NCBI RefSeq assembly: GCF_003334305.1
Contig: NZ_QOWS01000009.1
Source of the DNA: Escherichia coli
GTDB lineage: Bacteria > Pseudomonadota > Gammaproteobacteria > Enterobacterales > Enterobacteriaceae
DNA length: 64,000 bases
Direction: 5' to 3' (one strand)
Positions 60,572 to 61,989 of the stretch are shown one piece after another. Every line of letters starts with the position of its first letter. The stretch's first letter is position 1. The notes below the pieces were generated by a model. It saw nothing but the letters and a program-made list of their open reading frames with translations, searched no databases and was not told the origin of the DNA. A program made the position numbers and the translations under genes.

Positions 60572-61033
60572 TTACGGATTCTCCTTATTCTTCCTTCTAT
60601 CCATTCGCTTTAGCTTTTTGAGCTCTTGAAGTTTGCTCTTTGCATCAATATTACCGTTATTTACAGCGAATTCCATCCAATAAATAGCTCTATTCAAATT
60701 ATAATATTCTGATAATGTTGGATTTGTATCTGATAAAAAGACCCCATAATTAAACTGCGCTGTAACATTCCCCTGAGATGCTGATCTTTCCAAGAATCGC
60801 AATTGTTTATCAATATTATTTTTAGTAAAGCAGTAATATTGATATAGTCGAAATGATGCCTCTGAATCACCATGTTGTGATTTATACTTCAGTTTCATCA
60901 GCTTTTCTTCACTTAAATCATAGGTCATTGCTGTAGATCCCATCACACTTTCGTTTTCTTTTATTTTCACATCAGCACCATGCAATTGACCAATAAGAGA
61001 AAAATAAAAAAATAGTAACAAGCATGCTTTCAT
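60572..61033 (-). CDS. yibG: Sel1-like repeat protein with signal peptide (putative immunity protein)
   Basis: 153-aa ORF; signal peptide MKACLLLFFYFSLIGQLHGA; Sel1/TPR-like repeats; immediately downstream of an orphan Rhs tip. Confidence 0.8.
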   Translation of the reverse strand: MKACLLLFFYFSLIGQLHGADVKIKENESVMGSTAMTYDLSEEKLMKLKYKSQHGDSEASFRLYQYYCFTKNNIDKQLRFLERSASQGNVTAQFNYGVFLSDTNPTLSEYYNLNRAIYWMEFAVNNGNIDAKSKLQELKKLKRMDRRKNKENP

Positions 61034-61044
61034 ACATCTACAAC

Positions 61045-61989
61045 CTATCTTATATCACTGGGTTTTTCTGGCGTACCTTGCATATTAGAAATGGGGTGCC
61101 CAGATGGCCCATATGTTATCCAATTACCAAGGTCTTTTGTTGTTATAGCCATTAGATCCTTATTTGAATTAAGGTTCGTTGGTGCTGTTAGCACTGTATC
61201 CATTTTTAACTTACCATTAGTTCCTCGCCCCCACCACGTCCATAGCGTGTCAGGTCCTATTACATTTGTATGTAACTCTTTAGCTAATTGGCTAGCAAAT
61301 GAATTTTGTCCTTTACCTGTATTACAAGAAAATAACCAAACTGTCATCCCATCTTTATAATTCCCATCAAATTTAATTAGATATGCTAGATCTTTAGCTG
61401 TCATGATACTGCGCGTTGCGGATTCAATAGATGTGGGGGTACCATGCCCCCCGATTGTGAAAACGCCTGGGATATTAATCTCATCAGCTACAGAATGGAT
61501 AAGATCACTTTCGGGGTATAAATTTATATCAACCAAACCTTGCGGATCTACATTTATGACCGGATTCAACGGATACTGATAAAAATTCCATCCCCCCTTC
61601 AGCCCAATCGGATCCTGAGTGATATACCGCCCCTGCAGCGGGTCATAATAGCGGTGGCGGTTGTAATACAGGCCGGACTCCTCATCATACTGCTGCCCCG
61701 GCAGCCGGATAAGCTGCTGCAGCTGATGCGGGTTCTCTTCATTCAGCAGGTTGCCCCATTCATCATATTCTGCGCACCACGCTGTTGCCCCTTCCGTGCT
61801 GATGAGCGCCAGCGGCAGGCCGCGATGGTCGCAGTGGTACAGGTGGATTTTTCGCGCCGGCGTGTACACCGGGTCCATCTGGTTTTTCATCTGCTCCACG
61901 GTCAGGCCGCACGATGCCAGCCAGCGGCGGCTTTCCTCACTCACCCGGTCAGCTAGGATTTCACTTTCCAGCCGGTCGAGCATCTGCAC
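61045..61989 (-). CDS. orphan Rhs C-terminal fragment (partial core plus toxin tip), YibJ-like
   Basis: 314-aa ORF containing core-end ...[39 protein letters not shown] followed by about 170 aa with GGHGTP and LFSCNTGKG motifs. Confidence 0.75.
61560..61706. repeat. Rhs core-end homology block (copy 2 of 3)
   Basis: About 145 bp nearly identical to 63857-64000, more diverged from 60405-60545. Confidence 0.85.

Follow-up and report, generated by a model that had tools for sequence, protein, structure and literature searches.

The orphan Rhs cassette yibJ-yibG of Escherichia coli: a predicted caspase-like protease tip and its putative Sel1-like immunity protein

Described systems and the yibJ-yibG cassette

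Orphan toxin-immunity modules of Rhs and CdiA proteins were described by Poole et al. in 2011 (PMC3150448). Here we analysed such a module in a 64,000-nucleotide (nt) stretch of Escherichia coli DNA (contig NZ_QOWS01000009.1 of assembly GCF_003334305.1; hereafter the window), the content of which corresponds to the rhsA region of a non-K-12 E. coli chromosome read in reverse. The module consists of an orphan rhs open reading frame (ORF) of 314 amino acids (aa) at the yibJ position (61045..61989, minus strand), which is intact and has a GTG start, and of yibG (60572..61033, minus strand), the gene of a 153-aa Sel1-like repeat protein and predicted cognate immunity protein that begins 11 nt after the toxin stop. 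The pair is an orphan toxin-immunity cassette of the textbook kind and shares with the described modules the core fragment, the tip, the immunity gene downstream of the main rhs gene and the capacity to be armed by recombination, with no substantive difference. For Salmonella orphan Rhs, recombination events leading to an armed state reportedly occurred in experimental evolution (Koskiniemi et al., 2014). Our best explanation, which we consider probable, is that this rhsA-locus orphan cassette combines a caspase-fold protease tip with an exported Sel1 immunity protein, YibG, and is kept in reserve for recombination.

Tip domains of this kind were predicted as “Tox-Caspase” by Zhang, Aravind et al. 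in 2012, i.e. as a caspase-like domain with a His and a Cys that usually acts as a releasing peptidase, is sometimes the C-terminal toxin of RHS or type VI secretion system (T6SS) proteins and sometimes forms arrays in giant proteins (PMC3482391). Exactly this distribution, with a His/Cys caspase-like fold, a terminal position on RHS proteins and arrays in giants, is also seen in the family of the tip studied here. The immunity families listed for Tox-Caspase are Imm36 and Imm57, the latter being linked to it in gamma-proteobacteria (PMC3482391). In contrast, the gene following the tip is of the YibG-type Sel1 kind, and not Imm57, in all 14 YibG-type loci found outside E. coli, and in E. coli itself Imm57 comes only after yibG and a second, degraded orphan. 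We regard yibJ-yibG as a well-populated example of an established class, namely orphan Rhs modules whose tip is of the clan CD “Tox-Caspase” type and whose partner is a Sel1 protein.

The same tip and partner were the subject of an in-silico study of enterohaemorrhagic E. coli (EHEC) EDL933 in 2020, under the names RhsA (EDL933_4854) and RhsAI (z5018), in which the tip was modelled on 3HO6 (template modelling score 0.73) and the Sel1/TPR protein z5018 was regarded as putative immunity protein (PMC7216683). The EDL933 rhsA-specific primer matches positions 61430-61448 of the window exactly, and the two loci differ in that the tip is fused to full-length rhsA in EDL933, whereas it is an orphan here. 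The 3HO6 match was read as inhibition of small GTPases of the Rho/Rac type (PMC7216683). However, 3HO6 is the cysteine protease domain of TcdA, deposited as part of a study of TcdA autoprocessing and cited elsewhere as a cysteine protease (PMC13323088), so that the match points to a cysteine protease and the predicted GTPase inhibition by EHEC RhsA is probably wrong.

Among solved relatives, Tce1 (PA0256, DUF4347; PDB 9qpe), a putative cysteine protease of the H3-T6SS of Pseudomonas aeruginosa published in 2026, is non-toxic in E. coli or yeast and has no known substrate or immunity gene, and its paralogue Tce2 shows Cys-dependent toxicity to yeast and looks anti-eukaryotic (PMC13323088). Both are stand-alone, Hcp-loaded proteins with no Rhs carrier, while the tip is Rhs-borne. 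The cysteine protease domains (CPDs) of family C80, found in Vibrio cholerae MARTX and in Clostridioides difficile TcdA/TcdB, are internal autoprocessing domains of 205-250 aa (205-251 aa for the solved ones) that are activated by inositol hexakisphosphate (InsP6) of the host. The tip domain, on the other hand, spans only ~145 aa, is terminal and slightly acidic (13 K+R vs. 16 D+E, net charge ~-3), has an immunity partner and gives no match to PF11713 (Peptidase C80) at E <= 10. On the immunity side, the EHEC study cites PA5087 and PA5088 (Tli5) of P. aeruginosa as exported Sel1-like T6SS immunity proteins that inhibit a periplasmic effector by binding (PMC7216683). They differ from YibG in neutralising a phospholipase D, not a protease, and in being about twice as long.

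Tox-Caspase (2012) and the EHEC pair RhsA/RhsAI (2020) were already known in silico. What is new here is an invariant dyad together with a confident fold assignment, the existence of naturally armed alleles, the amber lesion of K-12, and a phylogenetically broad linkage of toxin and YibG, in which the export signals point to a target in the periplasm. Published readings are corrected in two respects, one concerning the “GTPase-inhibiting” RhsA of EHEC and the other Imm57 as gamma-proteobacterial Tox-Caspase immunity. Moreover, two y-ome genes gain a testable function, yibJ and yibG, which also occur in K-12 and in EHEC O157 (with the tip on full-length RhsA in the latter); so far the literature on yibJ and yibG consists of list entries only, and no paper names DUF8616, although RefSeq labels the ORF either as partial RHS or as “DUF8616 domain-containing protein”, followed by yibG as “SEL1-like repeat protein”. 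If the reading as a periplasmic protease is true, the tip would represent a new enzymatic class beside the envelope-targeting T6SS amidases, glycoside hydrolases and lipases.

The orphan ORF, its toxin tip and the predicted fold

Residues 2-152 of the ORF correspond to positions 1111-1261 of the 1261 positions of the NCBIfam model RHS_core (NF041261, E 3.9e-92), and the ORF also matches TIGR03696 (E 1.3e-24, 86.5 bits with a cut-off of 32.5) and Pfam RHS (PF03527, E 5.1e-16). As the RHS_core match covers only the last 151 model positions, only the end of the core is kept, in agreement with a first-pass annotation of the window that had described the ORF as an orphan Rhs fragment retaining just the last part of the core. 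This remnant (aa 1-152; 61534..61989, minus strand) ends in NVDPQGL (aa 146-152), the usual core/tip boundary, with the DPQGL motif itself at aa 148-152 (61534..61548, minus strand), and is directly followed by the C-terminal toxin tip of 162 aa (aa 153-314; 61048..61533, minus strand), a predicted clan CD (caspase/CPD-like) cysteine protease domain. The GC content drops from ~0.6 (0.58-0.64) in the core remnant to ~0.36 (0.32-0.44) in the tip and yibG; a GC-rich core followed by an AT-rich tip is the usual pattern in Rhs. A stop codon closes the reading frame 36 nt before the GTG, and besides the 152 core residues the ORF possesses neither an N-terminal PAAR/delivery domain nor the full YD shell. 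With PAAR domain and Rhs shell missing, the window copy would not be deliverable as T6SS cargo as it stands.

A direct match of the 162-aa tip was not found in Pfam-A, NCBIfam, PADLOC or the PDB sequences. A HMMER scan of 1.84 billion representative proteins yielded 562 relatives at E <= 1e-3, which fall into three groups: orphans of E. coli and Salmonella, full-length Rhs proteins, and giant multi-copy proteins. In the full-length Rhs proteins (1300-2450 aa) the tip domain is the last domain, e.g. as the C-terminal-most one after DPxGL in P0036, P0040, P0060, P0144, and P0148, and the giants (3000-6800 aa) contain two to five internal copies. We aligned 67 diverse members that are 27-54% identical to the tip (alignment A1). 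The only invariant columns are those of tip H30 and C70, i.e. the candidate catalytic residues His182 (in GGHG, codon at 61444..61446) and Cys222 (in FSCNTG, codon at 61324..61326) of the ORF, both encoded on the minus strand. The adjacent G31 is conserved in at least 90% of the sequences, and C70 is the sole Cys of the tip.

The AlphaFold2 model of the tip from this alignment reached a predicted local distance difference test (pLDDT) of 87.8 and a predicted template modelling score (pTM) of 0.85, and places the His after beta-strand 24-28 (VFTIG-GHG) and the Cys after beta-strand 64-68 (TVWLF-SC). A His-Gly and, further on, an Ala/Ser-Cys, each after a hydrophobic strand, make up the classical signature of clan CD. 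The best PDB match of the model in Foldseek was the RtxA CPD (3eeb_A, prob 0.99), the structural matches also include TcdB, legumain, clostripain-like enzymes, and the glycosylphosphatidylinositol (GPI) transamidase, and the best structural neighbour is Tce1, at a sequence identity of 14%. The 67 members scanned singly against Pfam gave weak matches to C80 (five members), DUF4347 (five) and C13 (four), as well as one match each to CHAT and C25, which also belong to clan CD, amid scattered unrelated Pfam matches of one or two members. PF11713 in particular was matched by one of the 67 relatives at E <= 1e-3 and by five at E <= 0.1, and the E. coli tip had no match to Pfam DUF4347 (PF14252). Some relatives in AFDB are listed as “Peptidase C80 family protein”, others as “DUF4347 domain-containing protein”. 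From this modelled structure, the tip most likely has a caspase-like alpha/beta fold of the caspase-hemoglobinase type (clan CD: caspase, gingipain, legumain, C80 CPD) with a His-Cys dyad in canonical order and positions, and we infer that it is a His-Cys cysteine endopeptidase. The first-pass annotation had quoted two Cys/His motifs, including GGHGTP, and likened them to those of a cysteine hydrolase: both are present in the translation, the likeness gains strength from the invariance of H30 and C70 and from the clan CD model, and the remote-homology and fold search that it had proposed for the tip did arrive at known enzymes, those of clan CD.

Several observations concern relatives of the tip. 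In the giants P0025, P0028, P0029, P0031, and P0033 the domain copies are ~200-450 aa apart, and P0028 also matches the SCO1664-family model TIGR03843 five times; these giant multi-copy proteins look like multi-effector polyproteins with repeated releasing peptidases. A fragment from the annelid Capitella teleta, annotated as “RHS protein conserved region domain-containing” (R7V9C4 in AFDB), shares 44% identity with the tip across 101 columns and represents either bacterial contamination of the annelid assembly or horizontal transfer. Further, E. coli, including O157, has a second, paralogous family of Rhs tips with 33-36% identity (A0A9P2VKJ6, A0A376S9M4, A0A2U2V405), which may be that of the z0268 “PAAR” Rhs modelled on the RtxA CPD in the EHEC paper.

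YibG and its linkage to the tip

YibG matches solved Sel1-repeat proteins in the PDB with E-values of 6.9e-9 to 8e-7, with 8sxq, 6ok3, and 6deh at E 7e-9 to 3e-8. In Pfam it matches TPR_27 (E 1.2e-4), and Sel1 itself at E 1.2 only. There are also weak matches to 5jkp (E 3.5e-4) and 5jjo (E 0.075), which are presumably PA5087 and PA5088. The predicted signal peptide of YibG, MKACLLLFFYFSLIGQLHGA (60974..61033, minus strand), was recognised by eye and consists of Lys2, a hydrophobic run of ~14 residues and then HGA, which gives it n-, h-, and c-regions, the residues at -3 and -1 not being classical. Homologues of YibG have clear signals (FNA↓K) or lipoboxes (LAGC, LVGC, AACS) despite their divergent sequences.

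A locus scan of 100,044 species genomes with a 10-sequence alignment (A2) resulted in 24 loci. Outside E. coli, the tip is immediately followed by a YibG homologue in 14 loci from at least six genera (Treponema, Rheinheimera, Paraburkholderia, Luteimonas, Pseudoxanthomonas, and Salmonella), with distances from toxin stop to partner start of mostly -3 to +15 nt and two larger gaps. A hidden Markov model (HMM) of the YibG family matches the next ORF in L009-L013, L015, L018, and L020 with E-values of 1e-56 to 2e-7; these loci are from Treponema, three Rheinheimera-type genomes, Paraburkholderia, two Luteimonas and Pseudoxanthomonas. The same order of tip and YibG is found in the enteric orphan cassettes L033, L035, and L036 (Salmonella salamae and two others). 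Likewise, a YibG homologue comes next in each of five loci that were obtained from full-length Rhs proteins (L003 to L008), where blastp gave E-values of 2.6e-15 to 2e-6 for the four called genes and the partner in L008 is an ORF that had not been called and that combines a signal peptide with Sel1-like sequence. Among these five loci, that of P0040 belongs to a ClpV-Hcp-VgrG-PAAR cluster, and in that of P0144 the Rhs gene comes after VgrG and DUF2169.

Nearly all YibG-type partners start with a signal peptide or lipobox, and the partners in other diderm loci (P. alcaligenes, Bdellovibrio, Bacteroidales) are different lipoproteins. On the basis of these gene neighbourhoods, the view of YibG-type proteins as the putative cognate immunity family of this tip subfamily is supported, and since the partners carry export signals, the toxin would act in the periplasm. 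The first-pass annotation, which had recognised Sel1-like repeats in YibG and called it a plausible periplasmic immunity protein, is upheld in the first respect by the matches to solved Sel1 proteins (E 7e-9) and made more credible in the second by the signal-like N-terminus and by homologues adjoining the tip in distant bacteria.

Two other neighbours were considered as partners of the tip and rejected. Between the tip and the Imm57 gene (a yibV-like ORF, 59428-59865) intervene yibG and the stop-riddled second orphan, and Imm57 is absent from the distant loci. YibA is encoded upstream of the tip, and its homologue in L036 follows an Ntox34 fragment. Partners of another type were observed in Clostridia and Collinsella (L017 4335-4643, L023 4321-4602, L024 4411-4605, L030 4386-4694), where non-secreted proteins of ~64-100 aa have a common C-terminal motif, W.W.D.D.YH.E.Y.L.L....F, and seem to make up a candidate immunity family without a name so far, different from that of YibG. 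In Lachnospiraceae (L022 and L027) the partners are Cys-rich and zinc-ribbon-like.

The contact between the two proteins was modelled with AlphaFold2 as a fused chain of the tip, a (GS)15 linker and mature YibG, using 13 paired rows plus unpaired ones. The fused model has a pTM of 0.85 and a pLDDT of 89.1, with values <50 only in the linker, and the pLDDT of tip residues 101-130 rises from 65-68 in the tip alone to 70-94. Six long helices extend over YibG 42-151, and the only beta-strand of the otherwise helical YibG, at residues 29-33, lies beside a motif conserved in the family. A beta-strand on its own must pair with another one, and since the single sheet of the model belongs to the toxin, an addition of the strand to the protease is suggested. 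In the predicted complex, a conserved segment at the N-terminus of mature YibG would extend the toxin sheet by one beta-strand, with the Sel1 solenoid packing on the toxin.

Arming, rival explanations and neighbouring remnants

The homology to the rhsA core of K-12 extends from 62013 to 61544 (95% identity over 471 nt), beginning 24 nt upstream of the GTG, and these ~470 bp provide an arm for recombination with a full-length rhs gene. Armed forms exist in nature. One contig (L038) encodes an Rhs of at least 743 aa that ends in this tip and is followed by yibG, and 2240 nt of core plus tip were matched in one unbroken piece in at least 13 complete E. coli genomes. At the rhsA locus of strain AW1.7, a 1409-aa Rhs with a PAAR-like N-terminus and DPQGL at residue 1243 has a tip that is 100% identical to the window tip at the protein level, with an identical YibG next to it. 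This identical tip on a full-length PAAR-Rhs indicates that natural recombination arms the cassette, and together these alleles lend substance to the earlier idea that the tip could recombine onto rhsA. The corresponding DNA of K-12 is 99.3% identical over 4 kb, with yibG intact. Its YibJ (P32109, 233 aa) has the same GTG start and is cut by a CAG->TAG change 12 codons past the candidate catalytic Cys, at the codon of Gln234 in the window (61288..61290, minus strand; alignment to NC_000913.3). Given the amber stop in K-12 yibJ and the open frame in the window, the window holds the intact form of yibJ. The stretch of ORF and yibG is covered to at least 80% in 3441 of 5426 complete E. coli genomes (about two thirds), which argues against a chance finding.

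As proposed, the tip would be delivered by the T6SS into neighbouring bacteria when it sits on a full-length PAAR-Rhs, as in AW1.7, and would there cleave a substrate of the cell envelope or periplasm. YibG would be exported and, in the periplasm of the producing cell and of its kin, block the protease by direct binding. The toxin copy in the window might serve as a reserve tip that can be moved onto the main rhs gene via the core remnant, and yibG might meanwhile protect against neighbours that deploy this tip. More specifically, and only tentatively, the tip could be a clan CD antibacterial T6SS/Rhs toxin that acts in the periplasm on the envelope (where the target might be, e.g., an essential lipoprotein, a factor of outer-membrane assembly or peptides linked to peptidoglycan) and does without an InsP6 switch, with the N-terminal strand of its Sel1 inhibitor acting as pseudo-substrate. 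To our knowledge, none of the interbacterial toxins characterised so far is a clan CD enzyme, and the insertion of a pseudo-substrate strand by a Sel1 immunity protein is not described in the literature cited here.

Expression of the orphan was addressed by a promoter and terminator scan, in which promoter-like sites were less numerous than in shuffled sequence and none was in a position to drive yibJ; upstream of yibJ no convincing Shine-Dalgarno sequence or promoter was found. The distance from the yibA stop (62031) to the GTG of the ORF (61989) is 41 nt, as given in the first-pass annotation. In K-12, genomic SELEX (systematic evolution of ligands by exponential enrichment) revealed binding of the RpoD holoenzyme in the yibA>yibJ and yibJ>yibG spacers (PMC3946193). 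If the target is periplasmic, leaky expression in the cytoplasm would be harmless, which would fit the wide retention of the cassette.

Several points weigh against the explanation by a protease tip with an exported immunity protein. The nearest solved relative, Tce1, is itself only a putative protease and non-toxic, with Tce2 looking anti-eukaryotic (PMC13323088). The periplasmic site of action is indicated solely by the export signals of the partners; the partner in L004/L005 has no signal peptide as called, and the partners of the more remote Gram-positive relatives are small, non-secreted and from other families. The fused chain is a workaround with 13 paired rows only and was judged by pTM, pLDDT and secondary structure, so that the interface is to be taken as a suggestion. 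Binding of RNA polymerase in vitro near yibJ and yibG makes the silence of the orphan, which the first-pass annotation had considered probable, less certain, and the amber mutation of K-12 demonstrates that the toxin half is able to decay.

This last point leads to the alternative that survives best, namely that the cassette is a decaying relic with no present function in this strain. It would agree with the amber stop in K-12, with the partial or pseudo status of the ORF in RefSeq, with the next orphan downstream being full of stops and with the lack of a good Shine-Dalgarno sequence or promoter. However, the window ORF is intact, its tip protein does not differ from the full-length Rhs tip of AW1.7, yibG is intact even in K-12, and the stretch has been retained in 3441 of the 5426 genomes, all of which makes a mere relic unlikely. 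Besides, a dormant toxin half is part of our best explanation too, so that the two overlap.

An anti-eukaryotic tip, or one that acts in the cytoplasm of the target cell (like OspB or Tce2), with YibG as an unrelated or accessory Sel1 protein, appears improbable. The closest solved structures are indeed parts of host-directed toxins (RtxA, TcdA/B) or members of the putatively anti-eukaryotic Tce1/Tce2 family, Sel1 proteins are generic interaction modules, and the Gram-positive relatives pair with small non-secreted proteins. On the other hand, a tightly linked downstream gene of one family across phyla is a signature of antibacterial self-protection, the partners carry export signals, and a slightly acidic tip of ~145 aa would seem to have no room for the InsP6-binding flap that switches host-directed CPDs.

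Even less probable is a Cys-dependent hydrolase other than a peptidase (amidase, nitrilase-like or deamidase), which the first-pass annotation had offered as an alternative for the Cys/His motifs. The clan CD matches score about twice as high, and a nitrilase fold with its Glu-Lys-Cys triad finds no conserved Glu or Lys column in a family where only His and Cys are invariant. Papain and NlpC/P60 folds, including amidases of that type, need the Cys before the His, whereas the order in the tip is His then Cys, each after a hydrophobic strand, and no such structural matches were obtained; an alpha/beta-hydrolase was rejected as there is no conserved Ser or Asp in the tip.

The least probable of the alternatives is the tip as a releasing (autoprocessing) peptidase, comparable to those of MARTX and large clostridial toxins, instead of the part that kills. 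Zhang et al. call most Tox-Caspase domains releasing peptidases (PMC3482391) and the same family occurs as internal copies in the giants, but here, as in every full-length Rhs homologue, the domain closes the protein after DPxGL and leaves nothing behind it that could be freed. Rhs proteins free their tips by their own aspartyl autoprotease, and a processing domain would need no immunity gene, so that this possibility is very remote.

Around the cassette, the gene order on the minus strand is the end of the main rhs gene, yhhH, yibA, the 314-aa ORF, yibG, the degraded second orphan and the Imm57 gene, beyond which yibH and yibI are located on the plus strand and then mtlADR on the minus strand. 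YibA (62031..62888, minus strand), upstream of the ORF, is a HEAT-repeat protein (NF007244, E 9.6e-140). Homology to K-12 in this part runs from 62925, and ~37 nt upstream of the yibA start still match the end of K-12 rhsA. In K-12-type strains yibA comes directly after an rhsA that some records annotate as “polymorphic toxin type 34”, and in L036 an Ntox34 fragment precedes a HEAT_2 protein. Since yibA has no toxin here, follows a type-34 rhsA in K-12 and shows the corresponding order in L036, it would seem to be an orphan immunity gene belonging to another cassette (Ntox34) and no part of the yibJ-yibG pair.

The main rhs gene at the window edge (62978-63863 region, minus strand) has a different tip at 63333-63863, with a DUF4329 domain in its RefSeq equivalent, and overlaps by 29 nt with a 127-aa gene named YhhH in RefSeq. 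This pair of DUF4329 tip and YhhH is associated with rhsB in K-12, and its presence at the rhsA locus suggests an earlier tip replacement. Downstream of yibG, a second orphan core remnant at ~60390-60570 (minus strand) is riddled with stops (...YDDESGLYYNYYR, stop, H, stop, PQQGRY...) and is followed by an apparently intact 145-aa ORF of the Imm57 family with a TTG start (59428-59865, minus strand). With the ORF intact and the second orphan degraded, the immunity gene seems to have outlived its toxin.

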